Positions 2,988 through 60,677 are shown, counted from the stretch's first letter. The stretch is DNA of 64,000 bases from a virus (UHGV-0021337); one strand, 5' to 3'. The notes: generated from the letters alone by a model not told the origin. Made by a program: numbers and translations.

Positions 2988-3081
2988 GGAAGTTTACTCA
3001 ATGTTGGCAAAGAGGACAGTTTGCTAAACTGTTAGGTCTTCGTAAGGGGGCGAGTAGGGTCGGCACCTACAACTTCCGCCA
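2988..3081 (+). tRNA. tRNA-Ser (anticodon GCT), type II
   Basis: Acceptor ggaagtt/aacttcc, then G73 and CCA. Anticodon stem acagt/actgt with loop ttGCTaa. Long variable arm. Atypical T-loop gtcggca in the T-arm gtagg/cctac. Confidence 0.5.
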
Positions 3082-3149
3082 TAAAGAATACAAAATAAAT
3101 TTCTAAGTTTTATAACAAAATTATTGTATATAACTTATATAAGAAATAT

Positions 3150-3225
3150 GCTGGTGTAGCTCAATTGGCAGAGCAGCTGATTTGTAATCAGCAGGTTGCG
3201 GGTTCGATTCCAGTCACCAGCTCCA
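3150..3225 (+). tRNA. tRNA-Thr (anticodon TGT)
   Basis: Acceptor gctggtg/caccagc. D-stem gctc/gagc. Anticodon stem gctga/tcagc with loop ttTGTaa. T-loop gggttcgattcc with one stem mismatch. CCA. Confidence 0.65.
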
Positions 3226-3323
3226 CAGGTTTTATTTTATAACATTTGTTGCACCAATGTAAAAAGCAATAAAGTTGTGTAGTACTTGCGCAATATGGAC
3301 AACTTGATAAATGTTATTTTTAT

Positions 3324-3400
3324 GGCCCCTTAGCGTAATTGGTTATCGTGTCTGACTGTCTATCAGAAGATTGCAGGTTCGAGTCCTGTAGGGGCCGCCA
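3324..3400 (+). tRNA. tRNA-Asp (anticodon GTC)
   Basis: Acceptor ggcccct/aggggcc, then G73 and CCA. Anticodon stem tctga/tcaga with loop cuGTCua, as in E. coli tRNA-Asp cuGUCac. T-arm caggttcgagtcctg. Confidence 0.6.
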
Positions 3401-3539
3401 AAAAGCAGCTGTTGTTCTTTTATTAAGAGGCAGAACAACTATTTCTTGCCTGAATGACAAGACAACAATGTTATTTCGTATCGAGTAATGTTGTTTGAGT
3501 TATTTAACGAGTAGGGATACGGAAACGCTCGTATTGTAT

Positions 3540-3614
3540 CGCAGAGTAGAGAAACGGCATCTCACTTGGCTCATAACCAAGGGACAATTGGTTCGACTCC
3601 AATCTTTGCAACCA
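3540..3614 (+). tRNA. tRNA-Met (anticodon CAT) with initiator-like features
   Basis: C1/A72 mismatch at the top of the acceptor stem and an A11:U24 pair in the D-stem gaga/tctc, both initiator hallmarks. Anticodon stem cttgg/ccaag with loop cuCATaa. T-arm attgg-ttcgact-ccaat. CCA. Confidence 0.6.
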
Positions 3615-15952: not shown

Positions 15953-16108
15953 ATGAAATTAGAAAAGATTACACCTAATAAACAAAATAAAGATAGGGAC
16001 TATACTTTGCGAGAAGACGTTGCTAAAGAGATTGAAGACGCTATGAATGAGCCATGCCAAGAATTTAGTGACTTGGCTGAATTGTTCATATATCTGGGGC
16101 TAAGATGA
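15953..16108 (+). CDS. small protein (51 aa) overlapping the toxin-domain gene start by 4 nt; candidate antitoxin-like partner
   Basis: RBS gagagaaag. TGA overlaps the ATG at 16105. Confidence 0.4.
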   Translation: MKLEKITPNKQNKDRDYTLREDVAKEIEDAMNEPCQEFSDLAELFIYLGLR

Positions 16109-17079
16109 AATATACTGTATTACCACAAAAGCCGTTCAAGAAAGCGTTAGATAAGTTGATTGCAAATGGACTTAGCAAACAAGCTCAAGATAGAATAGAA
16201 ATTGCAATTGAACTACTTTCCAACGGTCAGCAACTTCCTCCTTATTACTGCGACCACGCACTTAAAGGTAAGAAGTTCAAAGGTGTAAGAGATTGTCACA
16301 TACAGGGTGACTTAGTTTTAATCTATAAGTACGAACACAAGAAACTACATCTGTTGTTATTAAAGATAGGAAGTCATAATCAAGTGTTCAATGAGTCACT
16401 TGAAACACATAAAGAACTCAATCCGAAACTGTTTGAAAATAACAAGCTAAAACAAGATGTAAGAAAAGCTCTGCTCGACATTGTTGTCACTTTTGTAAAA
16501 GATTTAGAAGAGAATGAAGTACCTTTACACGTTGTTGATGTTTGGTTAATCGGCAGTAACGCTTCTTTTAACTACACCGATAAGAGTGATATAGATTTAC
16601 ATATAATAACAAATAGTTCTGAACTATCCTGTGACCCGGCATTACTTAAAGTAGTTTATAACTATGCTAAAGCAGCGTTTAATCGTAATCACGACATAAC
16701 TATCAAAAATTTACCAGTCGAAGTATATATTCAAGATTGCGAAAGTACTGTTAATAGTAATGGTATTTATAGTGTAATCGACGATTGCTGGGTAAAAGAG
16801 CCTAAGCCTATAACAATTACCTATCCTGATCCGAAAAACCTTGCACAACTGGAGCAACTAGTTGCAACATATAAAGCACTAGACAGAAATGATTTAGATG
16901 CTGTAACTAACCTAATCGACTTAGCTTACAAGATAAGAAAAGAAGGTCAACTCGAGGGCGAATTTAGTGACGGCAATTTATCATTCAAAGAATTTAGAAA
17001 TCTTGGATACTTAGACGACCTAAAAGAATTGAGACTAGAATTAGAGTCAAAAGAGTTAACTTTAGAAAAGTTAAAGTAA
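16105..17079 (+). CDS. fusion of an N-terminal YafQ/RelE-family mRNA-interferase domain and a C-terminal minimal nucleotidyltransferase domain
   Basis: Residues 45-95 are YYCDHALKGKKFKGVRDCHIQGDLVLIYKY...LLLLKIGSHNQVF. They align with the E. coli YafQ catalytic region (DHPLQGSWKGYRDAHVEPDWILIYKL...GTHAALF). The C-terminal half carries the NTase signature LIGSNASFNYTDKSDIDLHII (G[GS]x9-13DxD). Confidence 0.65.
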   Translation: MKYTVLPQKPFKKALDKLIANGLSKQAQDRIEIAIELLSNGQQLPPYYCDHALKGKKFKGVRDCHIQGDLVLIYKYEHKKLHLLLLKIGSHNQVFNESLETHKELNPKLFENNKLKQDVRKALLDIVVTFVKDLEENEVPLHVVDVWLIGSNASFNYTDKSDIDLHIITNSSELSCDPALLKVVYNYAKAAFNRNHDITIKNLPVEVYIQDCESTVNSNGIYSVIDDCWVKEPKPITITYPDPKNLAQLEQLVATYKALDRNDLDAVTNLIDLAYKIRKEGQLEGEFSDGNLSFKEFRNLGYLDDLKELRLELESKELTLEKLK

Positions 17080-18053: not shown

Positions 18054-18833
18054 ATGGCTGACGCTAAAATAAAAGTTAAAAGAACTGATACAGAAACTAA
18101 TAGAGCAAATTCTTCAGCTTTACTTGAATATGGTCAACCCTTGTATGTAAAAGACTCAAATCATTTATACGTAGGGGACGGTACTACACAAGCAAAGAAT
18201 TTGAAATACATCAACCAGAAAGAAGTTGAAGATATTAACAATACAATAGGCGGTGTTACTCAAGGTAAAACTGTTGTCGAAATGATTTCTGACACTCAAA
18301 CAGCTGCTGCTCAAGATGCTACTACTAAAGTTAATAGCCTTGCTAATGGTCAAGTAACAACAAATAAAAATGATATAGCAAATATCAAAACCACATTACT
18401 ACCTAATGAAACAAGTGCTCGCGAACAAGCGGACACTGAATTATCTAACAAGATTGATACTACAAAATCGGAATTAGAATCAAAAATAACTGAAGAGACA
18501 CAACGTGCACAAACCGCTGAAAACACATTAAGTAACGACAAGTTAGATAAGAAGACGGGTTATACTGGGGTTTATGTGAACGATGGTGTTGATAATCCTG
18601 TGCTAATTGGATTTAGCTCTGGTGATGACGGAACAACTGAGTTATTAAAAGACACATTTGTACAGCGTTCATCAGCTGGTCAAGGTTCATCAGGAGGGCG
18701 AGTTAGGGCAAATGCAGCAATTGCAGATCACGACTGTATGATAAAAAAGCAATTTCAAGTAACGACTGAAACTGATTACAATGGGCTTCCATCAAAAGAT
18801 GCTAATACGTTCTATTTTATTACTAATGCATAA
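18054..18833 (+). CDS. tail-fibre-like protein with a HylP-type N-terminal motif
   Basis: K.K.KR.TDTE.N...LL..GQPLYV.D...LYVGDGTT. Thr/Asn-rich fibrous body. Confidence 0.5.
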   Translation: MADAKIKVKRTDTETNRANSSALLEYGQPLYVKDSNHLYVGDGTTQAKNLKYINQKEVEDINNTIGGVTQGKTVVEMISDTQTAAAQDATTKVNSLANGQVTTNKNDIANIKTTLLPNETSAREQADTELSNKIDTTKSELESKITEETQRAQTAENTLSNDKLDKKTGYTGVYVNDGVDNPVLIGFSSGDDGTTELLKDTFVQRSSAGQGSSGGRVRANAAIADHDCMIKKQFQVTTETDYNGLPSKDANTFYFITNA

Positions 18834-27348: not shown

Positions 27349-27365
27349 TACATCTTAATTGAATG

Positions 27366-27400
27366 AAGGCGACTTGCATATTTAGTGAGTCGTCTTTTAT
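27366..27400 (+). terminator. rho-independent terminator
   Basis: aaggcgacttgcatatttagtgagtcgtctttt. Confidence 0.5.
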
Positions 27401-27511: not shown

Positions 27512-30500
27512 ATGAATCTTGATGATGCAAAAATGTATGCTCTCGTGCACAACAGGCAAAAGTGCGCATGTGATGAAATCTATCGATTAGTTCAAAAGCA
27601 TGACACAGAAGCTAACTGGAATAAAGCAGTTAACTTTAAGCCTAAAGCAGGGGAGCTAATTGTTTATGATGTTGATGCAACACATAATGCTCCTCGACTT
27701 AAAGTAGGAGACGGTAAAACAGTTGTATTTGACTTGCCGTTTTTCTTTGAAGGAGCATTGGAAGAACTAAGTGCTAAACTTGACCAAGAAATACTTGACA
27801 GAATTAAAGCAGTCTCTGATGCTATAAAAGTCGCTGCAGAAGATGCAACTAAAAAAGCAAATGTTGCAGAGTTGAATGCTAAGAACTACACAGACAATGC
27901 AGTTACTACTCTGTCGACTGAAATTCAAACAAAATTAGACACTAAGTATGATAAAACTGGAGGCACAGTAGGCGGAGATGTTACCATTACTGGAGACCTT
28001 ACAGTCAACGGAACGCAACATATAAACAACACTGAAAACCTTAATGTTGAAAATGCAATGATTTATTCAAATGCAAATGGAGCAACATTAGCAACAAATG
28101 GTGGTATTGGTATTAAAACTAATGCCACTGACGTGTACGGTATTGTTTATGACCCTAGTGCTGATAGCGTAAAACTTGGTTTAGGTAAAGCTGATTCTAA
28201 CGGTGTATTTACATTCAACGCAGATGAGGGTGAGCCTATTGCAGTAAGAGACGACAGTTCTAAGCTTACTAATAATCATCTTATAAAATGGGACAGTGTA
28301 AATAACAAACTTTCTGACAGCGGTAAAACAATTGATGACTTACTAACTAAAGAGGAAGGTAACTCTTTATATGTGGCTCACTCAGAAGATCAGGACAGTA
28401 AGTTTGTTTTATATAGTAGAACCGGTGAAAATGTCGATACTGTTACAGTTTTAGGTACAACTGAAGACTTATCTGTTCCTACAAATGTTCCTGTATATAG
28501 AAACTCGAATAGTGGCACTGCTGTAAATGGATACTTACTAACAAATACTCCTGTAAATGATTATCAAGCATCAAATAAAAAGTATGTTGATGATAATGAT
28601 AATTTGATTAAAACAGAGCTTAAAAACAAGTTAGATATAGAAAAAGGTTCTAATTTAGTTTATGTAAATGGAGGACTTGGTACTCCTACTGTAATCGGAT
28701 TTGCTGCTAATAGTTCTGTAAAGAATTCTATTCCAAGACGCACAGAAGAAGGTGCTTTATTTGCTTCTAACATAGGTAATCCTTTCAATAACATTGCACT
28801 ACTAGCGAATGATTTAGGTAAACGAGTAGTATACGTTGGTGGTGATAAAACATTATCTAAACAGAGTAAGATTACAATAAATTCCGACATATATGATGTT
28901 GACTTCAATGGTGCTACAATAAAGATTAACCAAGGTGAATTAGGACTTGTTGCAGGTACATTTGACGGATTGATAAAAGGACACAGTCACTGCATAATTC
29001 GTAATTTGAACCTAATCGTTAACATTGCCCCTTATTCTACTAACACTACTTTAACTGGGTACAATGTTTTAGATAAATTTGGTGGAATTGAAAATGTTCT
29101 AGTAACTATAAACAGCTCTGCAACCTCTTCCGGCTCAGTTAATATCACATTACGTGGTATTGCTAATGCAGATCATATCAGTAATACAAAGGTAAATTTA
29201 GATTGCAATACTGATAAAGTTACTTCAATTTGTTACTCTTACTGCAATTATTTAGTGTGGGCGAGAGCGGACGGACAAAGTGATTATGCATTTGCAGAAT
29301 GTAACTACTTGACAAATTGTTTGAGCATGTATAACTTGTTCGAAGATGAACAATCCTTCTTGAACTGTTCGATGTTGTCCAACTGTACTTACAGAACTTT
29401 TACTCGTGATGAGCAAGGAGGTGGTTACTATGTTACAAGGTATACTTCTACTGTTGGTAAGTCTCCTTTAGACAGTATTCAATACACTAATAGTGGTAAA
29501 ACAAAAGCCTACGTAAAACCTGCAGGCGGTAGTGGTATAACACCAGCGATTGATGTTGACACTGAACCTAATGGTGGAACTATTGTAAGAAGATTGACAA
29601 ATGGACAAATTCGTGCTGCAGATGCAAAAGCTGCTGCAGACTTAACTACATTAGCGCAAGTCAATACAATTGTATCTTCATATGTACAAGGTAATCCTGA
29701 ACAAGCTGGAACTGCAAACTTAACAAAAGTCAAAATCGGAAGTGTTATCTATAATCTAGCACAAGATATTGATGCGTATACCAAGACTGAAACAGATACA
29801 TTACTTAATAATAAACAAGATAATTTAACTCAAGGCACAGGTATAAAAATTGACAACAATGTTATAAGTATAACAGGTGATGTATTTACGGCTTCAAATT
29901 ACTATAATAAAACGGACACTAATGAGTTACTTAACACAAAAGCAAATACTTCGGATATTCCTACAGTATCAACTCTCGGAGAAACAGGTCAGTTAAAAGA
30001 CGGTATAGAAGACGCTACGCACAGACTTGTAACGGATACAGAAAAGTCCACTTGGAATGATAAACAAACACAACTTACAGATACTCAATTAGATGCTGTA
30101 AATTCAGGAATAACATCTGCAAAAGTTACTACCTATGATAATTATGCGGCAAGTATAGAAAACAAAGTTGATAAAGTCGATGGAAAAAGTCTTTCGACAA
30201 ATGACTTTACTGATGCAGATGTTGCTAAACTTAATGGTATTGAAAGTGGTGCTCAAGTTAATACAATTACTAGTATAAATAATAAAACAGGGGTAGTGGT
30301 ATTAACAGCAGCTGATGTTAGTGCATCTCCTATAAACCACGCAAGTAATGAAGTAACTTATGGTGTAGGAACAACAACAAACTATGGTCACGTCAAACTT
30401 GCAACAGGTGACCAGAATGGTGTAACTGCAACAGATGGAGTAGCTACTGCCGAAGGGCATACTCATAGCCAGTATTTACTAACATCTGGTGGCTCTATTA

Positions 30501-30997
30501 CAGGTAATCTAACCGTTGGTGGTAATTTAACTATAAATGGTACAACAACTACAATCGAAAGTCAAACCTTAGCAGTCAAGGATAAACTAATTGAAGTAGC
30601 AAGTGGCAATACTGAAAAATTAACAACTCCTGCAGGATTAGTTGTTCCAAAATATGACGGTGTTACTAATGGCGCACTAGTTTTTGATGGTGATGGTACA
30701 GCTTATGTAGGCGATGTAGCACTAGACACTGCAGGTAACATAGATGTTAATAATTCTGACTTAGTAGCTCTAGCAGCTCGATCTGCAACTATTGCTGATG
30801 GTAACATTGTCAAGTGGAACAATACAAATCTAACTCTTGTTGATACAGGTATAAATGTTGACAATGTTGCAACGAAAACAGATTTAGTCGAAGTTGTCGC
30901 AAATCCCACTCTTTCTGGAAATGAAGCTAACTTAACAGCTATACAAGTTGGCGACAAAAAGTACGCAATTAAAGCCTTAAACGTAGTGGTGTGGTAA
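27512..30997 (+). CDS. tail fibre or tailspike protein (1161 aa)
   Basis: HylP-like N-terminal motif (EANW...GELIVYD...RLKVGDGKT). Central domain about 60% identical to 34776..36959. Repeated K.DGKSLSTNDFT...KL.GIE.GAQVN fibre motifs. Confidence 0.65.
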   Translation: MNLDDAKMYALVHNRQKCACDEIYRLVQKHDTEANWNKAVNFKPKAGELIVYDVDATHNAPRLKVGDGKTVVFDLPFFFEGALEELSAKLDQEILDRIKAVSDAIKVAAEDATKKANVAELNAKNYTDNAVTTLSTEIQTKLDTKYDKTGGTVGGDVTITGDLTVNGTQHINNTENLNVENAMIYSNANGATLATNGGIGIKTNATDVYGIVYDPSADSVKLGLGKADSNGVFTFNADEGEPIAVRDDSSKLTNNHLIKWDSVNNKLSDSGKTIDDLLTKEEGNSLYVAHSEDQDSKFVLYSRTGENVDTVTVLGTTEDLSVPTNVPVYRNSNSGTAVNGYLLTNTPVNDYQASNKKYVDDNDNLIKTELKNKLDIEKGSNLVYVNGGLGTPTVIGFAANSSVKNSIPRRTEEGALFASNIGNPFNNIALLANDLGKRVVYVGGDKTLSKQSKITINSDIYDVDFNGATIKINQGELGLVAGTFDGLIKGHSHCIIRNLNLIVNIAPYSTNTTLTGYNVLDKFGGIENVLVTINSSATSSGSVNITLRGIANADHISNTKVNLDCNTDKVTSICYSYCNYLVWARADGQSDYAFAECNYLTNCLSMYNLFEDEQSFLNCSMLSNCTYRTFTRDEQGGGYYVTRYTSTVGKSPLDSIQYTNSGKTKAYVKPAGGSGITPAIDVDTEPNGGTIVRRLTNGQIRAADAKAAADLTTLAQVNTIVSSYVQGNPEQAGTANLTKVKIGSVIYNLAQDIDAYTKTETDTLLNNKQDNLTQGTGIKIDNNVISITGDVFTASNYYNKTDTNELLNTKANTSDIPTVSTLGETGQLKDGIEDATHRLVTDTEKSTWNDKQTQLTDTQLDAVNSGITSAKVTTYDNYAASIENKVDKVDGKSLSTNDFTDADVAKLNGIESGAQVNTITSINNKTGVVVLTAADVSASPINHASNEVTYGVGTTTNYGHVKLATGDQNGVTATDGVATAEGHTHSQYLLTSGGSITGNLTVGGNLTINGTTTTIESQTLAVKDKLIEVASGNTEKLTTPAGLVVPKYDGVTNGALVFDGDGTAYVGDVALDTAGNIDVNNSDLVALAARSATIADGNIVKWNNTNLTLVDTGINVDNVATKTDLVEVVANPTLSGNEANLTAIQVGDKKYAIKALNVVVW

Positions 30998-31043
30998 TGA
31001 AGACAACATTAGTAAACTTAAGATAAACAATAGTGTGTAACAA

Positions 31044-31076
31044 AAACCAACAGTTTAAATAATTGTTGGTTTTTCT
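31044..31076 (+). terminator. rho-independent terminator
   Basis: aaaccaacagtttaaataattgttggtttttc. Confidence 0.6.
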
Positions 31077-31133
31077 TACGAATTCTGCTGCACATAAACT
31101 AAATTATAATGTAGATAAGATAGAGGAAATTCA

Positions 31134-31430
31134 ATGAGTGAACGTTATATAAATAAGCTCCATGGTATACTAATTCACGATGTTCGTGTCGATGAACTAG
31201 AGGAGCGTGTTGAAACCCTTGAAGATTCTGGCGGCGGTGGTGAAGGCGTTAAAGCAATCACTGTTGATAGTGTTGATAAACTTCCTATCCCTGGAAACTC
31301 TTCGGGGGTTTATTTTATTCGAGAACCAAGTTCCATTTATAGATGGGACAATATAACAAAGTCATACGTATGCGTTGGTTCAGACGTAGATGAAATACAA
31401 GTCATCATTGGCGGAAACGCTTTCGTATAA
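31134..31430 (+). CDS. hypothetical protein
   Basis: RBS agaggaaat. Confidence 0.45.
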   Translation: MSERYINKLHGILIHDVRVDELEERVETLEDSGGGGEGVKAITVDSVDKLPIPGNSSGVYFIREPSSIYRWDNITKSYVCVGSDVDEIQVIIGGNAFV

Positions 31431-31456
31431 ACTACTAAATAGGAGAACTACAAACA

Positions 31457-32719
31457 ATGGCAAAAAAAGAACTTAGAACACAGATTCTCTTAAGGAATGA
31501 CAGCCTTAATAATTGGGAATCTTCCTCCTTAGTTTTAGGTCAAGGCGAAGTTGCTTGGGCGAATGACGCAGGCAAATTCAAAATCGGCGACGGTAGTAAG
31601 ACGTGGTCACAGATAACCTCTTACTATACAGATTTTGCTGCAGTACAAACTGCAATAAATGCCGCTGTTAAAGGCTTGTCTAGAACAGAGGTTTATCAAG
31701 CAGAAATCGAGAAAGGCGCTAACAAAGTTGCAGCGCTTCAAGCGGTTGCTGAAAACCCTGTAAAAGGAGACATCGGTATTGTTAAAGAGGCAATAACGGG
31801 AGACCTGAAAGAATATACTGCTTATGTATACAATGGCAGTGCTTGGGCGGCAATGGATGGAAATTATGACGCAGACAACGTGTATTTTTCAAAAGACATT
31901 GTTATTACTGCACCTCTTGGTGTTCACACTGTTGGGTCGTCTGGCTCCGCAACACTTGCAGCTACAGGTAAAAATATAACGTCTTTTATGCAATATCTTG
32001 GAGCAGAAGAAAAAGATCCTACTATAACGCAACCTTCTGTTAGTATTTCATTAACTAATGCTGGAGCAAAAGAAGTTGGGTCTTCAATAACTCCCGCTTA
32101 CAAAGTCACATTTGGAGCAGGCAAGTACGAGTTTGGTCCTGCAACCGGTGTAACAGCTGAATATGCAGTATCTGACACAGCTTCTCATACAGCAACTACA
32201 GCGGAAGGCTCTTTCGATGCATTTACAGTTGAGGATGCTACAAATTACAAAGTATCTGTAACTGCAACATACACGAATGGTGCAACTCCTGTAACAAATC
32301 TTCAAACTGAAAAACCCGCTCTTGCAATTAAAGCAGGAAGTAAGAGTGCCACATCCAGCGCGGTAACTGGATTCCGTGGATGGTTCTACGGGTATAAAAC
32401 AAACAATACGATTAACCCTGAGACAATGACTTCCGCTCAAGTTAGAGCATTAGGAACTGCAAGAAATGGTAGTTTTGCTACAACTGTAACAACAAATAAG
32501 ATGCAACAGATGTTCTTTGCTGCTCCTAAAGGTCTTGTTAAAAACATTCAAGTTGCAAACTCTAAGACAACTGCTCCACAAGTTGTTACAAAGAGAACTG
32601 CTGAATTGATGGTTGAAGGGGCTAATAGTTATCAGGCTGTTGCATATGATTTATTCTATGTAAACAATGCTGCACCTGAAGGTGGCAGTACTACATTCAC
32701 TGTAACGGTAACGAAATAA
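31457..32719 (+). CDS. tail fibre protein
   Basis: N-terminal motif NDSLNNWESSSLVLGQGEVAWANDAGKFKIGDGSKTW. Ala/Thr-rich body. Confidence 0.55.
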   Translation: MAKKELRTQILLRNDSLNNWESSSLVLGQGEVAWANDAGKFKIGDGSKTWSQITSYYTDFAAVQTAINAAVKGLSRTEVYQAEIEKGANKVAALQAVAENPVKGDIGIVKEAITGDLKEYTAYVYNGSAWAAMDGNYDADNVYFSKDIVITAPLGVHTVGSSGSATLAATGKNITSFMQYLGAEEKDPTITQPSVSISLTNAGAKEVGSSITPAYKVTFGAGKYEFGPATGVTAEYAVSDTASHTATTAEGSFDAFTVEDATNYKVSVTATYTNGATPVTNLQTEKPALAIKAGSKSATSSAVTGFRGWFYGYKTNNTINPETMTSAQVRALGTARNGSFATTVTTNKMQQMFFAAPKGLVKNIQVANSKTTAPQVVTKRTAELMVEGANSYQAVAYDLFYVNNAAPEGGSTTFTVTVTK

Positions 32720-32735
32720 GGAGTAAATTAGCAAT

Positions 32736-34640
32736 ATGATAACACGTGAAGAATTACTACAAAAATTAGCAAATGACCCTAAATGGGACGTTGGCGTTGC
32801 GATTAACCGTACTAACCCGGTACCCACAGATGCTACTGCGGTAGTTGAATCTGTTGAAGCATTAAACGCGTATGCAACTAGCAACCCTATTGCGTATCCC
32901 GGCCAAATTGTTACAGTTTTAGGTGAAACTGAAATTGCAGCGTACTTGATTAAAACAGTCGGAGAAAATTCTGCTATCAGTAAACTTGCTGCTTCTACAG
33001 CGTCCGGAGACATTGCAACAGATGTTGAAAATTTGAAAACTCAAGTCGCTAAGATAATTAGTGGTGAACAAGTTGTTGGTGCAGCTACAAAAGCTACTCA
33101 AGACGGAGCTGGAAATGTAATTGCTACTACTTATGCAACTGTCAGCGCGCTTAATGATGTTAAAACAACTGCAGAACAAGGTGTTACTGACGCTGCTGCA
33201 GCTAAATCGGCGGCTGATGCTGCTAAAGAAGTTGCCGACGCAAAAATTGGTGCAGTTTCTCTCGCTTCTGGTACAAACAACGGAACATTAAAACTTACGA
33301 TTGATGGTACAGCGACTGATAACATTGCAGTAACAGGTCTCGGTTCTGCGGCTTACAAAGCAGACACAGCTTTTGACGCTGCAGGTAAAGCAGAAGAACT
33401 TGTTAATGCACACAATAGCTCGAATGCTGCTCATAGTGACATAAGAGAATCAATAACTGCTCTTTCAGAAAAAGTTAGTGGTCGTGCTACTAACTATGTA
33501 TTTGCAAATAAATTAGACGCAGAGTATGTTGCAGCAATTGGTAAAGCTGGTTCATTTGGTATTGGTGATACAATTTACTTTACTGATACTAATATTCCAG
33601 ATGAATGGGTAACAGCAGTTAACGAATCTGCTCCTTTCTATACATTCCAAGAAATTGAAACTGAGAAACCTGACCTTTCTGGTTATGTTAAAGACACTAG
33701 AAAAATCAATGGGAAAGACTTAAAAGCTGATATTACACTTGGTGTTGCAGATATCAGTGGTGCTGCTTCTACAACTGATGTTTCAACTGCTAAAGAAGAA
33801 GTCCTTGGCACAGTAGACACTAAACTCGAAAATTATGTAACAAATACTACTCTTGATGGTAAAGGTTACATTACTAAAGAAGTCAACAACCTTACAAATT
33901 ACACAACAACAACTGAACTTAATACCGCACTTGGTAACAAACAAGATAAGAATCAAACTCTAACAGACATTGCTGCGCTTGAAGGGACAGGTCTTGTAAA
34001 GAAAACAGCTGACGGAGTTGAGCTTGATACAAATAGCTATCTTGTTGAAGCTGATTTAACTAGCGCATTAGAACCTTATGCAAAGAGTGCTGATGTAACG
34101 TCAGAAATAGAAACAGCTGTTGCTGATAAACAAACAGCAGCTCAAGTTAATGCATTGATTGCTGCTGCAACTATTGACGGAAGTAAAGTAAATGGTGCAG
34201 TTGCAAGTGCAACAAATGCTGACACTGCTGCAAAAGTTGCTAATAAACTGACAGTTGGTGATAAGGAATTTGATGGTTCCACAGCAGTAGAAATTACTGC
34301 AGCAGACCTAGGCGCTATTACCGCTATTCCTGAAGCAACTGCGGAAGCCCTTGGTGGCATTAAAGTTGGATTTAATAAAGCAGGCAACAAGCTTCCTGTT
34401 CAGCTCGAAGAAGGAAAAGCATTTGTAGAAATACCTGCTGCGGTTCAATATCAAGCAGGTGACGGTCTTGCATTAGACAGTGCAACACATACGTTCTCTA
34501 TTGCAGAAAACGGTGTTGTTTCTACAATGATTGCGGACAATAGTGTAACTAATGCTAAAATCCAAAATGTAAATGTAATGAAACTTGAACAGGGTGAAGC
34601 TGACATACTAGTTCTAAACGGTGGTAATGCTACTGCTTAA
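32736..34640 (+). CDS. fibrous tail protein (Ala/Thr/Val-rich, 634 aa)
   Basis: Low-complexity fibrous composition. Sits inside the fibre cluster. Confidence 0.5.
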   Translation: MITREELLQKLANDPKWDVGVAINRTNPVPTDATAVVESVEALNAYATSNPIAYPGQIVTVLGETEIAAYLIKTVGENSAISKLAASTASGDIATDVENLKTQVAKIISGEQVVGAATKATQDGAGNVIATTYATVSALNDVKTTAEQGVTDAAAAKSAADAAKEVADAKIGAVSLASGTNNGTLKLTIDGTATDNIAVTGLGSAAYKADTAFDAAGKAEELVNAHNSSNAAHSDIRESITALSEKVSGRATNYVFANKLDAEYVAAIGKAGSFGIGDTIYFTDTNIPDEWVTAVNESAPFYTFQEIETEKPDLSGYVKDTRKINGKDLKADITLGVADISGAASTTDVSTAKEEVLGTVDTKLENYVTNTTLDGKGYITKEVNNLTNYTTTTELNTALGNKQDKNQTLTDIAALEGTGLVKKTADGVELDTNSYLVEADLTSALEPYAKSADVTSEIETAVADKQTAAQVNALIAAATIDGSKVNGAVASATNADTAAKVANKLTVGDKEFDGSTAVEITAADLGAITAIPEATAEALGGIKVGFNKAGNKLPVQLEEGKAFVEIPAAVQYQAGDGLALDSATHTFSIAENGVVSTMIADNSVTNAKIQNVNVMKLEQGEADILVLNGGNATA

Positions 34641-34648
34641 CTTACAGA

Positions 34649-34690
34649 GTAACAAAGAGGGATAAATCCCTCTTTGTTACTTGTATTATT
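34649..34690 (+). terminator. rho-independent terminator
   Basis: gtaacaaagagggataaatccctctttgttac followed by ttgtattattt. Confidence 0.6.
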
Positions 34691-34775
34691 TATAAAAGAG
34701 CTCTATAAAAGATGAATTTAAAACACACTTTAACAGAGTTAAGCATTAGTACAGATAACTATGGAGATACATTAG

Positions 34776-36959
34776 ATGGCTACAAAAACTCTTAAAGCAC
34801 GAATCAAGCTTAAATATGACACGTATGAAAATTGGAGTGCTGCAGATAATCAGTTTAAACTTGAAGCAGGAGAGGTTGCTGTAACAAGTGTACTAAATGT
34901 TGTAGATCCTGTAAATAATCCTCCAACAATTATGTTTAAGGTAGGTGATGGAACAAAAACATACAACCAGTTAGGTTGGGCTTCAGCTCTTGCAGCTGAT
35001 GTGTATGCGTGGGGAAAAGCAGCTAAAGCTCCTGTTGCAGACATTCTTAGTAGCGGAAGTAATGTGCACGTTACTAAAAACGAAAATAACGTTTATACTA
35101 TCGGCGTAGATGAGCAAAGTTTTGTTGATACAAATACATTATATCGTATAAAACTTGATGGTTATACGTTGACGTTAGAAAGTAGTGAAGATGGTAATGC
35201 TTGGACTACACAAGACACTTTAACGTTACCTGATAACAATACAACATATACATTTGACTCTACAGCTACTTCAGGTGCAAGTTTTAACGTAACACCTTCT
35301 GGAGGCAATACTCAAACAGTTTATATCGATGGTTTAGGTAGTGCGGCATTCAAATCAGATACTTATTTTGCAACTGCACAATCGGTCACTGATATCAAAG
35401 GAGACGTAGAGTCCTGTGTCAGCGAATTAGATAAGAAACTAAACAAAGCTACAGGCAAAAGTGTTGTTTATGTGAACGGTGGAAATGGTGCGCCTACAAC
35501 TATAGGGTTTGCAGAAAACACCGCCCCTGCGTCCTCAATGGTTAGAAGAAATACAGACGGAGCAGTCGTTGCTACAAACCTTGCAGCCCCTTTCAATGAT
35601 ATAACGAAGTTAGGTGACAATCTCGGTAAAAGACTTATTTATGTTGGTGGTGACAAGACTATAAACGGTGGTTTAAGCAAAATAACGATTAACTCTAACA
35701 TTTACGACATTGATTTTAACGGTGCAACTATAACCTTAAATTTTGACGAACGTCAACTTGTCGCAAATACTTATGACGGATTGTTGAATGGTCACAGTCA
35801 TTGCGTAATCCGCAATTTGAACTTAAAAGTAGTCATTAAACCTTTTTCTACAAATACTGCAGTAACAGGATATAACGTGCTTGATACGTTTGGCGGTATA
35901 GAGAACTCTCTTATCACTATTAACAGTAATGAAGTCACAGGTGGGACAGTTAACATTACTTTAAGAGGTATCGCAAATGCTGACCATATCAATAACACGA
36001 AAGTAAATTTTAATTGTTATACGCCAAAGGTTACTGCTGTATGTTATTCTTACTGCAATTATTTGTTTTGGTGTAGAGCTGATAAAAACAACAATTATTC
36101 GTTTGCTGAATGTAACTATCTAGTCAACTGTTCAAGTATGACTAATAGTACAACTAAAGTAAGAGAAAAATCTGCATCATACCTGAATTGTAGTGCATTA
36201 CAAAATTGTTCTTATTACATAGTTGCAAGCGACCCTAATGATTCGAGTCATAATCCTGCCTTGACAGCTACATTAAAATACACATCAACTGTTGGAAAAT
36301 CTCCGCTTGATAATATTCAGGAAGTAAATGATGGCAAAACAAAAGCATATGTAAAACCTGCAAATGGAAGTGGTATAACTGCAGTAATCGACGTTGACAC
36401 AGATGCTAATGCAAATACAATTGTTCGTAGGTTAACTGATGGTCGAGTTCGTGGAACAATTGCAAAAGACGCTAATGACCTTACCACTTTATCTCAAGTT
36501 ACTTCTTATACACAAGGCAACCCGACCGAAAATGGCACAGAAGATTTAACAAAGATTAAAATTGCAGATGTTGTTTATAACATACCACAAGGTCAAACAA
36601 TTGATGCATATACTAAAGATGAAACAAACACTTTATTGAATGCAAAGCAAAATACTTTAACCCAACCACAACTTAATGCCGCTAATTCAGGAATTACTGC
36701 AAATAAAGTGTCGATATATGACAACTACGCAAACACCATTAACAACAAGGTAGATAAGGTCACAGGGAAAGGTTTATCTACAAACGATTTTACAACTGCT
36801 GAAAAGACAAAACTTGCTGGAATAGAAACGGGAGCAGAAGTTAATGAGATTGACACGATTACAGCAGGCGAAAACGTAACAGTGTCGAAAAGCGGTAAGA
36901 CTGTGACTATCTCGGCAACAGGCAGTGGGGGTAATTCCTTAAAAGTTACTATATGGTAG
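34776..36959 (+). CDS. tail fibre or tailspike paralog (727 aa)
   Basis: N-terminal motif YDTYENWSAADNQFKLEAGEVAV...FKVGDGTKTYNQL. Central domain is a paralog of 27512..30997. Confidence 0.65.
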   Translation: MATKTLKARIKLKYDTYENWSAADNQFKLEAGEVAVTSVLNVVDPVNNPPTIMFKVGDGTKTYNQLGWASALAADVYAWGKAAKAPVADILSSGSNVHVTKNENNVYTIGVDEQSFVDTNTLYRIKLDGYTLTLESSEDGNAWTTQDTLTLPDNNTTYTFDSTATSGASFNVTPSGGNTQTVYIDGLGSAAFKSDTYFATAQSVTDIKGDVESCVSELDKKLNKATGKSVVYVNGGNGAPTTIGFAENTAPASSMVRRNTDGAVVATNLAAPFNDITKLGDNLGKRLIYVGGDKTINGGLSKITINSNIYDIDFNGATITLNFDERQLVANTYDGLLNGHSHCVIRNLNLKVVIKPFSTNTAVTGYNVLDTFGGIENSLITINSNEVTGGTVNITLRGIANADHINNTKVNFNCYTPKVTAVCYSYCNYLFWCRADKNNNYSFAECNYLVNCSSMTNSTTKVREKSASYLNCSALQNCSYYIVASDPNDSSHNPALTATLKYTSTVGKSPLDNIQEVNDGKTKAYVKPANGSGITAVIDVDTDANANTIVRRLTDGRVRGTIAKDANDLTTLSQVTSYTQGNPTENGTEDLTKIKIADVVYNIPQGQTIDAYTKDETNTLLNAKQNTLTQPQLNAANSGITANKVSIYDNYANTINNKVDKVTGKGLSTNDFTTAEKTKLAGIETGAEVNEIDTITAGENVTVSKSGKTVTISATGSGGNSLKVTIW

Positions 36960-52232: not shown

Positions 52233-54551
52233 ATGAGCAGAGACTTATTAGCTATAAAGTTGAACTCAATAGAGACACTTATCGGTGCCGAAACAGCCCC
52301 TCCCATCAATGCTACTGATAAGTTAGGCTGGCATCTTGATAACATTAAAAATGCAATTGAATCTGGTGGTACCGGAGGAAGCGTACAGAAAGAATACGTA
52401 GACAGTGAATTAGAAAAGAAGGTCGACAAAGTTACAGAAACTTCAGCAAATCCGCGGCTCTACGGTGTTAAAGAAGATGGAACGCAAACTACTTACTTTG
52501 CAACTCAGACGTCGAATGCAAATACAGTTGTCCAAAGAGACGCGACAGGACGTTCTCAAATAGAAGATGGAATTGCACCTAAGCAGATTATAAATAAGGG
52601 CCAGCTTGATGCTGCAGTAAAAGAACTACCTAAATTAGATGATACAAATACATTTACAGGTCAAAATATATTTACAGCAGAAACAGTTTTTTCAAGTGCG
52701 GTTGAATTTTCAGATACATTAAAACTTAATGACACAGTTTTAACTGCTTATGACACTGTTCATGACACTGTAACAACATATTCGGCTGATGAAATAGTTT
52801 TGCAGTCTGATGGTAATTCAAATAGCTATAACATGAAGTTTCCAAAAGCATCAGGAACATTTGCATTAACAAAATTTTCAACAATATCTTCATTTGAGAC
52901 TTCTGCAGAAGATAAAGAAGATGCTTGGAGCACATCTGACCCGAATGCTGCTATAACGATATATCATGAAGACTCAAATGCTCATGCGGGTATCGCGGTA
53001 CAAAAAGGCTTTGTTGAATTATCACACATATCCGACGGTACAGGGCAAAATCCTTCTGCAGCAAAAATATCAATTGATTCATTGAATAACATAACAATGG
53101 ACGCTGAAGATAGCGAAGGTAATAAAACAACACTTGCGATAACTCCAACTGATGCTAAGATAAATAACAAAGATGTAATAACTTCAATTGGCGGTATATT
53201 TGAGCAGAAGCCAGAGGTAAAAACTAATGGCGAGAACTCACCTGTAGCTGTTATGCAAGACCTTCAAAGTTATGTTCCTATTCAAAGTGAAGAAGGTCTG
53301 TTATATGCTCAAGTTAACAATGAAAAGGGACAAATATCTTTCAGAGTATTTAGAAACGGCGAAGAAACTGATAAACAAAACATCATTATTGCAGAAGATA
53401 GAATAACAACAAATGGTGTAAGTATAGCGACAGAAAATGATTTATTCGGTAAATTAGATAAAGTTTCTGTTCCTAATCAAGTTTATGGAACTGATGAAGA
53501 AGGCAAACAAAAATTATACACAGTAGATGCTGAATTGAGTCTAACATCTACAGATTTAGTTCAAAACAAAGTTATTAGAGAAGCGCTCGACGGTAAATTA
53601 AACGTTGCAGAACAATCAGCCACAAAACGTGTGTATGCAAGAACTGACGCAGGAACAGACACAAACATTAGCTACACATATTCAGCAGAGGCAGACACTA
53701 TAGCATATAGATCTTCTTCAGGTACACTCGCTGTTGAGACGCCTACACAGCCAAAAGATGCTGCAAATAAAGAGTACGTTGACTCAAAAATTCCAGCTGC
53801 TTTGGTTGTTGATTCCGCATTGTCAGATAGTAGCGAAAATGCTATACAAAACAAAGTAGTTAATGAGGCTATGAATAATCGTGTAGTGTGTCAACAATCT
53901 GGAAATCTCTTGAAAGCTTATTGTACATCACCTAATAATGTAAATGACGTATGCGTTGTGTCAAATACAGGGGTGGCTAATTCCATAACAAGATATACCG
54001 GAAGTGGTCAAGTAGTTGTTAACAGCGACCCAACGGAAGGAAATCATGTATGCAATCGAAATTATGTTAATGGATTAGCTACACGATATGGTTCTGGTTT
54101 ACCTACTCAAGGTATTGGAACAACATATAAAACCGGATGTACTTACATTGATACAACTACAGGCGGAGTATATGTATTAACCAAATCAGGAGATGCTTAT
54201 TCGTGGCAACTACAAACAACTTTTGAAAAGCCATCGTGGAAGAATATAAAACCAGAAAATACATCGAAGATATTGTTTACAAAAGTCACGTTAATCACGC
54301 AGGATAGCATAAACTTCCCAGGTATGAATGGAAAATCAGTATTAGTACAAGGATATTCTAGCGACGGGTTTAATTCTGGCACTGTTGTGTGCGATGAATT
54401 ATCAACGGGAGATATAACGTTCTCACCTTCATTCATAGGCAGTATTTCTTCAACAAAAGCTTCTGGTGTAATGATTAAAGGTAGTAATTCTATAGTAGTC
54501 ACTAGCATACCCAATCCAGAAATTACATTTTCATATGAATACTTGTGGTAA
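52233..54551 (+). CDS. tail fibre protein (772 aa)
   Basis: Motif TVVQRDATGRSQIEDGIAPKQIINKGQLD and repeated N(K/R)xYV(D/N) fibre motifs. Thr/Ser-rich. Confidence 0.55.
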   Translation: MSRDLLAIKLNSIETLIGAETAPPINATDKLGWHLDNIKNAIESGGTGGSVQKEYVDSELEKKVDKVTETSANPRLYGVKEDGTQTTYFATQTSNANTVVQRDATGRSQIEDGIAPKQIINKGQLDAAVKELPKLDDTNTFTGQNIFTAETVFSSAVEFSDTLKLNDTVLTAYDTVHDTVTTYSADEIVLQSDGNSNSYNMKFPKASGTFALTKFSTISSFETSAEDKEDAWSTSDPNAAITIYHEDSNAHAGIAVQKGFVELSHISDGTGQNPSAAKISIDSLNNITMDAEDSEGNKTTLAITPTDAKINNKDVITSIGGIFEQKPEVKTNGENSPVAVMQDLQSYVPIQSEEGLLYAQVNNEKGQISFRVFRNGEETDKQNIIIAEDRITTNGVSIATENDLFGKLDKVSVPNQVYGTDEEGKQKLYTVDAELSLTSTDLVQNKVIREALDGKLNVAEQSATKRVYARTDAGTDTNISYTYSAEADTIAYRSSSGTLAVETPTQPKDAANKEYVDSKIPAALVVDSALSDSSENAIQNKVVNEAMNNRVVCQQSGNLLKAYCTSPNNVNDVCVVSNTGVANSITRYTGSGQVVVNSDPTEGNHVCNRNYVNGLATRYGSGLPTQGIGTTYKTGCTYIDTTTGGVYVLTKSGDAYSWQLQTTFEKPSWKNIKPENTSKILFTKVTLITQDSINFPGMNGKSVLVQGYSSDGFNSGTVVCDELSTGDITFSPSFIGSISSTKASGVMIKGSNSIVVTSIPNPEITFSYEYLW

Positions 54552-54852: not shown

Positions 54853-55899
54853 ATGAATACGAAAACTTTGTTCCAGAAATATCACGAAAGGCTCACGCGC
54901 GAAGGAATTCTTAAATCCGTTCTTTTCTCGTTTATAGCGTCTTTTATACTGCTATTCGTTTCGTCTTTGATTTTTTGGTTTTTCGGTATAAAGAACTTTT
55001 GGATTCCGATAGTTTTAAGCGCGGTATTTTTCGCCGCCGCTTGCCCGATTGTATATTCTAAAAAATTTAAGCCTACCACGAAAGCAATCGCTAAAAGAAT
55101 TGACGAGTTGGGACTCGAAGAAAGACTTCTCACCATGACCGAACTTGAAAACGATACTTCCTTTATCGCCATGAAGCAAAGGGAAGACGCGCTTTCCGCG
55201 TTGAAATCGGTTAATTCCGGTCTTATAAAAATAATCGTTACCGTTCCCGTATGGGTGGCGTTCGGTATCTCGGCGGTATTCGGCGTCGGAATGACTACGG
55301 CTTCCGCTCTTGCCGAAAAAAATATTATTAAAAACGGTATCGCGATAGTTGACCCCGAACCCGACCCGATTTATTACGAACTCGAATACGAAGCGGGCGA
55401 AGGCGGTTTTATAGAAGGCGAAATTTTCCAGACGGTAGTCGAAGGCGAAGACGGTTCTATGGTTATCGCTATAGCCGACGAAGGATATATTTTCGTTGGT
55501 TGGTCGGATATGCTTGAAAAAGGCGAAAAAGCCGAAAGCCCCGAAAGAACGGATCTTGACGTTCACGGAAACGTAAAAGTAACCGCGATATTTATCGAAA
55601 CGGACGAAACCGACGGCAAACCCGACGAAGGTCCCAAAGACGGCGAAGCGGACGACGCGCCCGATAAACCGAGTGACGGAGGGCAGACGGGCGGTAAACC
55701 CTCAGAAGGCAGCGGAGAAGGAGGCGGCGGAGGCGTGTACGAAGCCAACGATAATATTATCGACAATGAAACAGATTACGGCGATTTTTACGACAATGCA
55801 TACGGCGAAGCCATGGATTCTATATCCAAAAACGGCGAACTCAGCGACCTTGAAAAGAAAATTATCAGCGATTACTATAACTCGATCGCTAAAAACTAA
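54853..55899 (+). CDS. membrane protein with an extracytoplasmic region containing a GYIFVGW repeat-like motif and a Gly/Asp/Glu-rich tail; gene is strongly GC-enriched
   Basis: Two or three N-terminal TM helices. Sampled 60-nt stretches inside the gene run at 40% and 65% GC, against about 32% in a sampled neighbouring window. Confidence 0.5.
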   Translation: MNTKTLFQKYHERLTREGILKSVLFSFIASFILLFVSSLIFWFFGIKNFWIPIVLSAVFFAAACPIVYSKKFKPTTKAIAKRIDELGLEERLLTMTELENDTSFIAMKQREDALSALKSVNSGLIKIIVTVPVWVAFGISAVFGVGMTTASALAEKNIIKNGIAIVDPEPDPIYYELEYEAGEGGFIEGEIFQTVVEGEDGSMVIAIADEGYIFVGWSDMLEKGEKAESPERTDLDVHGNVKVTAIFIETDETDGKPDEGPKDGEADDAPDKPSDGGQTGGKPSEGSGEGGGGGVYEANDNIIDNETDYGDFYDNAYGEAMDSISKNGELSDLEKKIISDYYNSIAKN

Positions 55900-55905: not shown

Positions 55906-55945
55906 TAAAGCACACGTTTATTCAACGTGTGCTTTATTTTTTATA
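55906..55945. terminator. bidirectional terminator between convergent genes
   Basis: aaagcacacgtttattcaacgtgtgctttatttttt. Confidence 0.6.
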
Positions 55946-57084
55946 AAGTTGTAATCATCAAACAAGTATTCTTGCTTTGCATACCAGCTTTGTTTTGTTT
56001 TAACTGCTTGCTCAACAGCTTTACTTATTTTTGAATATGCGGACTCGTAATCGTTTGACCACGCAGCAATATCTGCATCAATCTGCAACATTTTCCACTC
56101 TGAACGATAATGTGAAAATAATTTCCAGTCATTCAGTTCAAAATTCGCACGACACTGTGCATAATCCCAGAAATGTTTAGCTTCATCTATACGACCTTGA
56201 TATATAAGAGCTTGTACAAGGGCAACATATCCATCTAATATTTCAGGATATTTTTCAACTGCTTTTTTGTAACAAGAAATGCTTAATTCTTGTTGATGAA
56301 GTGTTTCGTAAAATTTGCCCATATAGATATATAAGGCAGTACTCATATAATCATCATGAGGTTTTTGATTTACATCTAATTCATAAAGTAATTTGTTACA
56401 GATATTCAATCCTTCAATTGCTTTATTGTTAAACCAGTATTCTCGTATAAGATAGAATAAACTAAAAATTTCGGTCGGATTTTCTTTTAATCTCAATTCT
56501 AACAAAGGAAGATAATCTGTTCTCGGTTTATCAGTAGGAAAATGAAATAGATATATCTTATTCTTATCTAGATATATATCTCCAGAGTAATCATCTCTGG
56601 TTGTAGTTAAGGTTTCGTGAACAGGGAATTGCCATTTCCATCCAAATCTTTGATGACACTTGTTATTCCAAAACCAGCGGTTAACGCAAACTGTGTTGTT
56701 GTCCACAACATTGTCACTGGCAAATCTATACCAGATATGTTTGAAATTAGGCATCTTTTCAACAGCCGATCTAACATCTGTAAAGAATTCAGGTATCACA
56801 ACTTCGTCAATGTCACTACAAAAACACACATCGGCATCTTCAGGTATCATTTTTAGACTGTCATTTCTAGGAACATCAAACCGCCAATCTAAATAACAAA
56901 CACTATTGACTATCAACTTGCCTTGAAATAACTTTTTGACACGCAATAAAAATTTAGTTGCTTTTGACATATTTGTTGTACAGCGAACAACTATATAATC
57001 AGCATAGGAAATTGCTCTTAACCATCGTTTAACAAACTGTAGTGGCTCGTCACCGCATATTGCATAAGCACAAATCTTAACCAT
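55918..57084 (-). CDS. GT-A fold glycosyltransferase with C-terminal TPR-like repeats
   Basis: N-terminal ICGDEP...YIVV and a DxD-like CSDIDEV. C-terminal helical TPR-like repeats. Confidence 0.5.
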   Translation of the reverse strand: MVKICAYAICGDEPLQFVKRWLRAISYADYIVVRCTTNMSKATKFLLRVKKLFQGKLIVNSVCYLDWRFDVPRNDSLKMIPEDADVCFCSDIDEVVIPEFFTDVRSAVEKMPNFKHIWYRFASDNVVDNNTVCVNRWFWNNKCHQRFGWKWQFPVHETLTTTRDDYSGDIYLDKNKIYLFHFPTDKPRTDYLPLLELRLKENPTEIFSLFYLIREYWFNNKAIEGLNICNKLLYELDVNQKPHDDYMSTALYIYMGKFYETLHQQELSISCYKKAVEKYPEILDGYVALVQALIYQGRIDEAKHFWDYAQCRANFELNDWKLFSHYRSEWKMLQIDADIAAWSNDYESAYSKISKAVEQAVKTKQSWYAKQEYLFDDYNFIKNKAHVE

Positions 57085-58634: not shown

Positions 58635-60677
58635 GTGGCAAGTAATTTTATTGACTTTCAATTTGGATTCAAAGTTCTTGCATCTAACGCTCTAGACTAT
58701 CGTTATGTTGGAGAAACAAAAGAGTTTCTAAACGAATTGATTGATTTAGATGCGGCATATGAAGGTCTTAGAGTATTCATAAAAGACGAAAACGAATACT
58801 ACGCTTACATAAAAAATGCTGATGGTGTTTATCAATTCGTTCTTGATAAAGGACCAGTTGGTCCTACAGGCCCGACAGGTCCTCAAGGCATTCAAGGACC
58901 AACTGGTCCTCAAGGTATCCAAGGCGAACAAGGTCCTGTAGGTTTACAAGGACCTCAAGGACCTAAAGGCGAGCAAGGAGAAAAAGGTCTAATCGGGCCC
59001 AGAGGTCTGCAAGGACCTGCCGGAGATACAGGTCCTAAAGGTGAACAAGGCAGTGTAGGTCCACAAGGACCTCAAGGCGTGGCTGGTAATAACGGTAGAG
59101 ACGGTGTAACCGGACCTAGAGGTTTACAGGGCGACACAGGACCGCAAGGTCCACAAGGAGATACAGGCCCACAAGGACCTCAAGGTCCAAGAGGTGAACG
59201 AGGACTTCAAGGTATTCAGGGTGAGACTGGTAAAGAAGGTCCTGAAGGCCCACAAGGCATTCAAGGCGCTACAGGACCAAAAGGTGCAGATGGTAAAGAT
59301 GGTACAAGCATAAATGTACAAGCTACAAAAGCACAATGCACAAAATCTGGGGACGGATATATAGCCGACGGAACTGACGCTCGACCTGGAATTGTGGGAC
59401 ATCTATACATATTTGTAACAGACACTGAATTCACAGATGCTGGTCAGATTCAAGGTCCTAAAGGCGATACTGGGGCTACTGGTGAACAAGGACCGAGAGG
59501 ACTTCAAGGCGAGCAAGGTGCGTACATAACAAAAATAGAAACAGGAGATGTTCAAACTTCTGCAGATTATACACTTACTCCTGTTACTGTTTCGTATAGT
59601 AATAATCTGCAAGATAACTTTACAATAAGCGCAGCGAATGGGGTTGACGGAATAAGAGGTGCAACAGGCGCGACCGGTGCAACACTTATTCCTCAAGTTA
59701 ATGAAACTACTACTCTATCTCCTGGAGAGGCTGCTACGGTGTCTGTTGATACTATAACAAATCCTTCAAAAGCTATGTTTACGTTTGGCATACCCAAAGG
59801 AGATACAGGACCGCAAGGTCCACAAGGTATTCAAGGACCTAAGGGAGATCAAGGTATTCAAGGAGATACAGGCCCTAAAGGAGACACTGGAAACCCTGCG
59901 TACAATCTGTCATTTCCTGTGTTTAAAGGAAGAGCAGACTCAGTACATGGAATTTATGCCTCAAGTCAACTTCCACAAGTCACTGCAACGGCAAATGCTC
60001 CAAAAGGTGACTTAACACCCGAAGGAAAACAGAACGTATACTTAACGTATGAGTTCGAGAATATAATTGGTAATGGTGTAGAGAAAGTTACTGAGTCCGC
60101 AAACCCTGACGATTTGCTTGGTACAGACTACACGCTTAAATTTTTCGGACCGCTAGATATCAACTCTGAGGATGATCCAAACTACCACGAAGAAATTTTT
60201 GATGACCCTAGTAAGAAGAATATCTATACATACACCCTTCATGTTCGAAACGGTGCAAGTTTGAAAAAAATAACTCCTACAAACTTAATTAACTTTCCTA
60301 CTGACTCTTATGCGTATGTTGTAAACAATACAGTATTAACAGGAGCTACAGAAGAGGGAACTACAGGACCGTCGTTTAATTCTCCTTTAATTGTTTTGAC
60401 CGATGATGTAGGTAAATCATCTATTGCTCTTGATACAACAGGCACAACAAAATCATTAAGCTTTAATTACAATACTGAAAAGTTTAACACAGAAACAGGA
60501 AGGTTGCCCGTAAGTGCAAAAATCACGCTACCTGCTGTTTATGCTACTTCTGGAACAAGCTCTTTAACAGTTCCTGTCGACATAACAGCTAAAAATCAGT
60601 TCTACATACGTAATATGCTAGGTAACTTCCAAAAAATCGATATGAGTCTTGATGACGGCATTCTTGAACTCGACTAA
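58635..60677 (+). CDS. collagen-like tail fibre protein
   Basis: GTG start with RBS aaggag. More than 60 G-X-Y triplets ([19 protein letters not shown]...). A second G-X-Y block lies at aa ~395-415. Confidence 0.7.

Follow-up and report, generated by a model that had tools for sequence, protein, structure and literature searches.

Two related mosaic tail-fibre genes sharing a predicted beta-helix domain in an uncultured phage

Closest described systems

A short N-terminal segment of about 55 residues, of the form (R/K).D....W......L..GE......KxGDG...(F/W)..L, is common to the hyaluronidase HylP (polysaccharide lyase (PL) family PL16; PDB 6x3m, 2c3f), to the Mtd protein of Bordetella phage BPP-1 and to tail-fibre proteins encoded in a stretch of 64,000 nucleotides (nt) from the virus UHGV-0021337 (hereafter the window, at its full length). 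The subject of this report is a pair of these fibre genes, g27512 (27512..30997; 1161 amino acids (aa)) and the shorter g34776 (34776..36959; 727 aa), both of which are mosaic and contain a predicted beta-helix domain. All features of the window described below lie on the + strand unless stated otherwise. The likeness of the window proteins to HylP and Mtd is limited to the N-terminus. The HylP structure 6x3m is treated as that of a hyaluronan-degrading enzyme, and HylP has as its catalytic part a triple-stranded beta-helix to which three chains contribute (PMC11669647), unlike the single-chain right-handed helix predicted here. Mtd carries a C-type-lectin variable domain diversified by a diversity-generating retroelement (DGR), whereas no DGR was found at 16-40 kb of the window.

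For the beta-helix itself, the best structural match is the N-terminal domain of the fucoidan lyase FdlA (PDB 7xz7), in which a cysteine ladder lies beneath the substrate groove and metal-independent beta-elimination is carried out by Lys, Tyr, His and Arg (PMC9410043). The family described here likewise appears to have a cysteine ladder, but its sequence identity to FdlA is 11%, and FdlA is a bacterial secreted enzyme whereas the window proteins are predicted virion proteins. Known tailspike depolymerases are similar in predicted structure, without detectable sequence similarity. In comparison with them, the helix, with about 210 confidently modelled residues, is short and cysteine-rich, and it is found in the middle of the fibre with 140 to 430 fibre residues behind it, instead of forming the bulk or the end of the protein. 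The other modules are shared with the mosaic fibre families of uncultured gut phages that harbor BspA-type leucine-rich repeat (LRR; PF13306), YadA-like or collagen-like domains: a shaft module (module X, below), N-terminal modules and fibre repeats recur at 40-83% identity in hundreds of proteins, and the C-terminal tag ALKVT(I/V)W is also common to these fibres. Unlike them, the window proteins have as host-facing domain a rare Cys-ladder beta-helix, and not an LRR, YadA or collagen domain.

It is probable (about 0.72) that g27512 and g34776 code for two separate, intact and modular receptor-binding (tailspike-like) tail fibres that diverged anciently. The basis of this reading is the homology of the two proteins, their module boundaries, the predicted fold, the mosaic distribution of the modules among homologues and the age of the divergence.

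Homology and predicted fold of the shared domain

BLASTP aligns aa 368-922 of g27512 with aa 216-695 of g34776 (E 6e-176, 52% identity over 565 columns, gaps included), consistent with the original prediction, made from the sequence of the window, that the two are paralogous fibre/tailspike genes. The shared domain had been described as ~450 aa long with ~60% identity, running from VYVNGG... to CYSYCNYL.... Both boundaries were found in the two proteins and the identity holds (60-62% over a central domain of 370 aa), but the shared region is longer, extending to aa 922 and 695, respectively. In g27512 it is interrupted by some 85 aa of inserted fibre repeats that g34776 lacks (about aa 776-860; 29837..30091). 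To call the two copies near-duplicates is too strong, since DNA identity does not exceed 70% and third-codon-position identity is 41%, versus 74% at codon positions 1 and 2 (471 codons); both open reading frames (ORFs) are intact, and this codon pattern is a sign of constraint. A fibre motif of the type K.DGKSLSTNDFT..., said to be repeated in each gene, occurs once per protein, as GKSLSTNDFTDADVAKLNGIESGAQVN in g27512 (from aa 891; 30182..30256) and as GKGLSTNDFTTAEKTKLAGIETGAEVN in g34776 (from aa 664; 36765..36839). These two copies are homologous to each other, and that of g34776 matches phrog_18608 and an ORF of a Methanomassiliicoccales virus. The predicted divergence of the C-termini holds in part: g27512 is longer by about 240 residues, yet the two proteins share a C-terminal heptapeptide, [AS]L[KN]V[TV][IV]W (ALNVVVW at 30974..30994 in g27512 and SLKVTIW at 36936..36956 in g34776).

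Structure prediction of the central domain yielded a pectate-lyase-like right-handed beta-helix, as had been anticipated, and not Ig-like stalks only. The AlphaFold2 model of the g34776 core (aa ~270-485, the part modelled confidently; 35583..36230) has a mean predicted local distance difference test (pLDDT) value of 75-95 per 10-residue block, and structure comparison recognises in it a single-chain right-handed solenoid of three-sheet coils. The homologous core of g27512 (aa ~422-632; 28775..29407) is likely to be a beta-helix too, given that it is 60% identical to the domain that was modelled. Among the structural matches, lyases and enzymatic tailspikes rank best; Foldseek matches in BFVD are to the same kinds of protein and are weak (best E 4.5e-3). 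A repeat of the form hydrophobic-x-x-C-x-x-L-x-N-C occurs four to five times in the domain, where C128, C212, C231 and C237 as well as N132, N162 and N192 (domain numbering) are invariant or nearly so. Their recurrence with the periodicity of the coils is consistent with an internal stacking ladder of Cys and Asn. A BspA-type LRR, prompted by the C..L.NC repeats, was considered and found to be wrong: the LRR_5 match of the homologue P0012 lies elsewhere in that protein.

No match to the central domain was found in Pfam even at E <= 10, in PHROG or in NCBIfam, nor among the PDB sequences with single proteins or, at E <= 10, with a profile of the domain (A2), and it does not belong by sequence to any known PL, glycoside hydrolase (GH) or Pfam beta-helix family (e.g. 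Pectate_lyase_3, Beta_helix, PL6, GH28). A word-indexed homologue search with the isolated domain gave two proteins, and it took an exhaustive scan with HMMER, over 1.84 billion cluster representatives, to recover 30 relatives (clusters), indicating a rare family. This unannotated Cys-ladder beta-helix family, together with its placement in the middle of a fibre, is the sole moderately novel element of the system.

At the other end of the proteins, the four genes proposed to open with one N-terminal motif (g18054, g27512, g31457 and g34776) are all present as + strand ORFs, and the motif has exactly four matches in the six frames of the window, each at most 30 residues from the start of a large ORF. 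The regular expression was composed with the four sequences already in view, and the count of matches is a sanity check only; 200 residue shuffles gave zero matches. In the four-way alignment D, N, G and GDG are invariant, the weakest motif being that of g18054 (NR for NW, GQ for GE). The motif spans aa 25-70 of g27512 (27584..27721) and aa 9-59 of g34776. With the Pfam family Mtd_N (PF18454; gathering cut-off 26.3 bits), the scores are 23.4 bits for g31457, 17.8-19.1 for g27512, 17.5 for g18054 and 14.3 for g34776, and the homologues P0012 (39.4 bits) and P0107 exceed the cut-off. The literature searched yielded nothing specific on tail fibres with Mtd_N or on the Phage_tail_C family PF24243. 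PHROG families named 'hyaluronidase' and 'tail fiber' match aa 2-88 of g31457, and a profile of the N-terminal segment (A4) aligns to residues 3-56 of the hyaluronidase 6x3m with the motif kept. HylP-like is therefore a reasonable name for this anchor, but the resemblance is borderline (sub-threshold Mtd_N scores, E 0.017 to 6x3m) and confined to the first ~55 residues.

Module exchange and history of the pair

The beta-helix is bracketed on both sides, in both proteins, by a motif of ~55 aa, K..YV..G.G...I......I.RR..G.......D..T..Q. In g27512 this flank motif lies at aa 378-434 (28643..28813; KGSNLVYVNGG...RR..G) and aa ~662-721 (29492..29671; GKTKAYVKPAGG...RR..G...D.TTL.QV), and in g34776 at aa 226-282 (35451..35621) and aa ~519-578 (36330..36509). 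One copy ('YV..G...R..G') is also present in g18054. A conserved DNA stretch of ~32 nt (family D2), 66-75% identical, is found at the start of the motif in these three genes, on the N-terminal side of the beta-helix in g27512 and g34776 and at 18555-18586 in g18054. Another component, module X, is an internal repeat of the g27512 shaft (aa 148-290, 27953..28381, versus aa ~985-1125, 30464..30886; 26% identity, E 2e-9). It is common to more than 100 fibres with LRR_5, YadA-like or collagen-like domains, and its second copy has a 70% identical counterpart within a collagen-like fibre of the related locus L002. More than 100 proteins that do not harbor the beta-helix, mostly of ~575 aa, have a version of the g34776 N-terminal module (aa 1-238; 34776..35489), with identities of 40-70%.

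The beta-helix itself occupies a central or C-terminal position in proteins of 325 to 1284 aa, where it is combined, among others, with an LRR_5 domain (P0012) or with a Phage_tail_C tip (P0007). In the short members P0124 and P0126 it is followed by the flank motif and then by ALKVTVW at the very C-terminus, and there the helix is presumably the distal, host-facing domain. In L002, a g27512-like N-terminus bears the beta-helix, and a g34776-like N-terminus is carried by another gene. Exchange of modules between fibres, as the original prediction had supposed, is evident among the homologues from these differing combinations of beta-helix and N-terminal modules, a pattern well known from the mosaic evolution of receptor-binding proteins in phages.

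The distal part of the fibres displays further recurrent elements. The C-terminal heptapeptide also ends P0002-5, P0123, P0124, P0126, P0149, P0153, P0196, P0212 and P0219, where the preceding domains are unrelated, and in P0124 and P0126 it is found within a few residues of the post-helix flank motif. It may form a final strand or serve as a tag for assembly or docking. Scanning IMG/VR with a degenerate DNA pattern for A-L-K-V-T-[IV]-W-stop gave 5 matches, which is about chance by a rough information-content estimate. A second motif, NPT..G.E..LT.I.(V/I)......Y.I, is present twice in g27512 (aa 724-750 and 1130-1155) and once in g34776 (aa 582-606). In short relatives such as P0123 it directly precedes the ALKVTIW tag, so that the longer proteins have the appearance of nested insertions that split a single C-terminal module in two. 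Finally, the fibre repeat 'ITSINNKTGVVVLTAADV..' of g27512 (aa 918-956; 30260-30380 of the window with the following residues) matches FtbO (PDB 9j1l, E 8e-5), which is the sole match from the PDB sequence searches with single proteins and with the A2 profile, and is followed by GHTHSQYL, containing a His-x-His motif (GHTHSQY). His-x-His motifs of this type bind metal in T4-type fibres.

Homologues of the domain point to a long separate history of the two copies. In a neighbour-joining tree, g34776 groups with P0002-4 (75-77% identity), which hold the slot of g34776 in the loci L003 and L004 (a 418-aa Mtd_N gene, a 623-aa gene, a 765-aa gene, the beta-helix fibre and a 410-aa gene), and g27512 groups with P0149 (83%; same upstream slot in L015) and P0005 (74%). 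The window copies are 62% identical to each other, each being nearer to fibres of other phages, and L002-L004 each have one beta-helix copy within 10 kb. These closer outside relatives and single copies indicate that the two module lineages are old, each with its own slot. The copies are old paralogues or xenologues, and the second may have come either from a duplication long ago or from acquisition.

A more recent origin, by duplication within this genome, with one copy redundant or decaying and a single functional fibre, might be suspected from two genes on the same strand that lie within 7 kb and align over more than 500 residues. We consider it very unlikely, as both ORFs are intact and are kept in near-identical contigs from other samples, each gene has its closest relatives in other phages and resides in its own conserved synteny slot, and identity is near saturation at third positions with positions 1 and 2 conserved. 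Still less credible, to the point of being negligible, is an active switching of host range by an invertible shufflon, a DGR or programmed recombination, in which the two copies would serve as alternative cassettes. It is true that the N-terminal motif is named after the DGR target protein Mtd, that the D2 stretch is conserved where the flank motif begins in three of the genes and that a phage integrase is encoded amid the fibre genes of the relative L002. However, all genes are on one strand, the D2 copies are only 66-75% identical, and the longest inverted repeats (20-28 nt, 71-85% complementarity) are at chance level; no near-identical pair of template and variable repeats was found, the top direct repeat being 70% identical, and no reverse transcriptase, invertase or integrase was detected at 16-40 kb. 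The cassette system of the original prediction thus holds as an evolutionary exchange of modules, but not as an active switch.

What the beta-helix does is a separate matter. It may be a non-catalytic solenoid of adhesin type, with a binding or structural role, the host being recognised through the helix or the distal parts without any degradation; this is a sizeable possibility, although not one that we favor. The closest structural matches, which are lyases and enzymatic tailspikes, argue against it, and so does the conservation of charged residues: among the 17-18 sequences aligned at the columns of D98, H125, E161/N162, N192, K194 and R219, no fewer than 16 retain the residue in question, even where identity has dropped to 28%, and a family-wide charged set (D98, H125, E161, K194 and R219) would be unusual for an adhesive surface that diversifies with the host. 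From the alignment, these five residues are candidate catalytic residues, and K194 and R219 would occupy equivalent repeat positions in consecutive coils by our reading of the repeat register. A bolder and somewhat doubtful proposal is that the Cys-ladder beta-helix represents a new family of enzymes carried on the virion, polysaccharide lyases or hydrolases with FdlA-like architecture and a conserved Lys/Arg/His/Asp set, plugged into the middle of a fibre between two ~55-aa trimeric linker motifs. One polypeptide would then combine an enzyme with a more distal binding tip, and the phage would direct two such enzymes of different glycan specificities against a gut Firmicute.

Under the preferred reading of two separate receptor-binding fibres, the order of modules would be a HylP/Mtd_N-type N-terminus, shaft modules, the beta-helix between its ~55-aa motifs, fibre repeats and the conserved C-terminal end. 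A role in trimerisation or in docking to the tail is probable for the short N-terminus, and the most likely role of the beta-helix is binding to a polysaccharide on the host surface, which it may also cleave. The two copies of the helix (about 60% identical) differ most at its C-terminal end, and these differences, together with the different distal parts, could provide the virion with two related but distinct specificities. The diversity would have arisen as phages recombined their modules in the course of evolution, and not from a programmed switch, and the pair would not derive from a recent tandem duplication. Some observations weigh against this reading. The Mtd_N score is under the 26.3-bit cut-off in all four genes, and the fold comparison of the N-terminal structure model gave no significant match. 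The model of the central domain is a monomer obtained from an 18-sequence alignment, with flanks of low confidence. Incorporation of both proteins into the virion is presumed, as are trimer formation, glycan binding and catalysis. Lastly, the assignment of a host is weak, as it draws on the sequence similarity of a few contigs from metagenome-assembled genomes (MAGs) and on one match at 33% identity (see below).

Genomic setting and significance

The window is phage DNA of ~35% G+C in which the fibre genes have an all-plus-strand setting. Upstream of the pair, g18054 (18054..18833) codes for a small fibre-like protein of 259 aa with a coiled-coil-like middle and a tip corresponding to Pfam Phage_tail_C (PF24243, 32.8 bits, above the cut-off). 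Three genes separate g27512 from g34776. The first, g31134 (31134..31430; 98 aa), has weak similarity to the C-terminus of a 192-aa protein located at the same position in related loci; g31457 (31457..32719; 420 aa) joins the N-terminal motif to a phrog_35541 C-terminal domain and has 49% identity to its counterparts in L002 and L003; and g32736 (32736..34640; 634 aa) codes for a tail protein without the motif that is kept in related loci (67% identity in L003). Terminator-like hairpins followed by a T-run are present upstream of g27512 (27365..27397; 13-pair stem, -16.4 kcal/mol, z -4.4) and just after it (31044..31075; -14.8 kcal/mol, z -5.35), and a strong terminator-like hairpin lies immediately 5' of g34776 (34647..34682; 16-pair stem, -25.7 kcal/mol, z -8.1). 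Their position directly before and after g27512 and directly before g34776 suggests separate transcription units.

Further putative receptor-binding genes are distant from the main fibre block, in a set of genes at 52233-54551, 54853-55899, 55918-57084 (minus strand) and 58635-60677, namely those of a 772-aa minor-tail-like protein ending in ...YEYLW and of a 680-aa collagen-like tail fibre, so that the phage appears to carry at least 8 fibre-like genes. They are interleaved with a minus-strand glycosyltransferase gene and with the gene of a 348-aa protein; for its homologue in L002, at 31% identity, a match to Flg_new_2 (PF18998) is listed. Just upstream of the fibre genes, a 324-aa ORF (16105-17079) harbors a YafQ/RelE-type toxin domain (PF15738, 75 bits, aa 3-96) fused to a nucleotidyltransferase-like domain (weak Polbeta and NTP_transf_2 matches; phrog_36119). 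In L003 (contig ERZ28573733 scaffold_311), a 3725-aa tape-measure-like protein (PhageMin_Tail; 1-2611) is encoded directly upstream of the syntenic fibre block, implying a very long tail for that phage; no such gene is present upstream of the fibre block in the window.

Other genes of the window comprise eight clustered tRNA genes (183-3614; Gly, Leu, His, Gln, Ser, Thr, Asp and Met), an anaerobic ribonucleotide reductase, many tail-like genes and a large terminase (61621-63681) with at most 38% identity to the terminase of any cultured phage. No relative of the window was found in a nucleotide search of 50,697 deposited phage records, and tblastn yielded nothing beyond a fibre motif of 43 aa from a Methanomassiliicoccales virus. 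Identical copies of window proteins are encoded by public metagenome contigs that are 142-165 kb long, the g27512 protein being among them (on contigs of up to 165 kb). Among the species-representative genomes searched, relatives of one module, the N-terminal one, were found on three MAG contigs, labelled Clostridiales, Lachnospiraceae and Acholeplasmatales, and no relative was found there with a single central domain as query. The C-terminal domain of g31457 has 33% identity to a protein of the Faecalibacterium phage FP_Brigit. The large terminase, the tRNAs, the tail genes and these public contigs mark the source of the window as an uncultured phage of roughly 145-165 kb, which probably has its host among gut Firmicutes.

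As it stands, the pair is a well-behaved case of known mosaic fibre evolution and raises no new question. The module boundaries, in particular the flank motif and the C-terminal tag, could guide the engineering of chimeric receptor-binding proteins. Should the beta-helix domain prove catalytic, gut phages would have one more family of glycan-degrading enzymes, so far without annotation. Phage enzymes of this kind are useful for host prediction and for dissecting the capsules and wall polysaccharides of poorly cultured Firmicutes.

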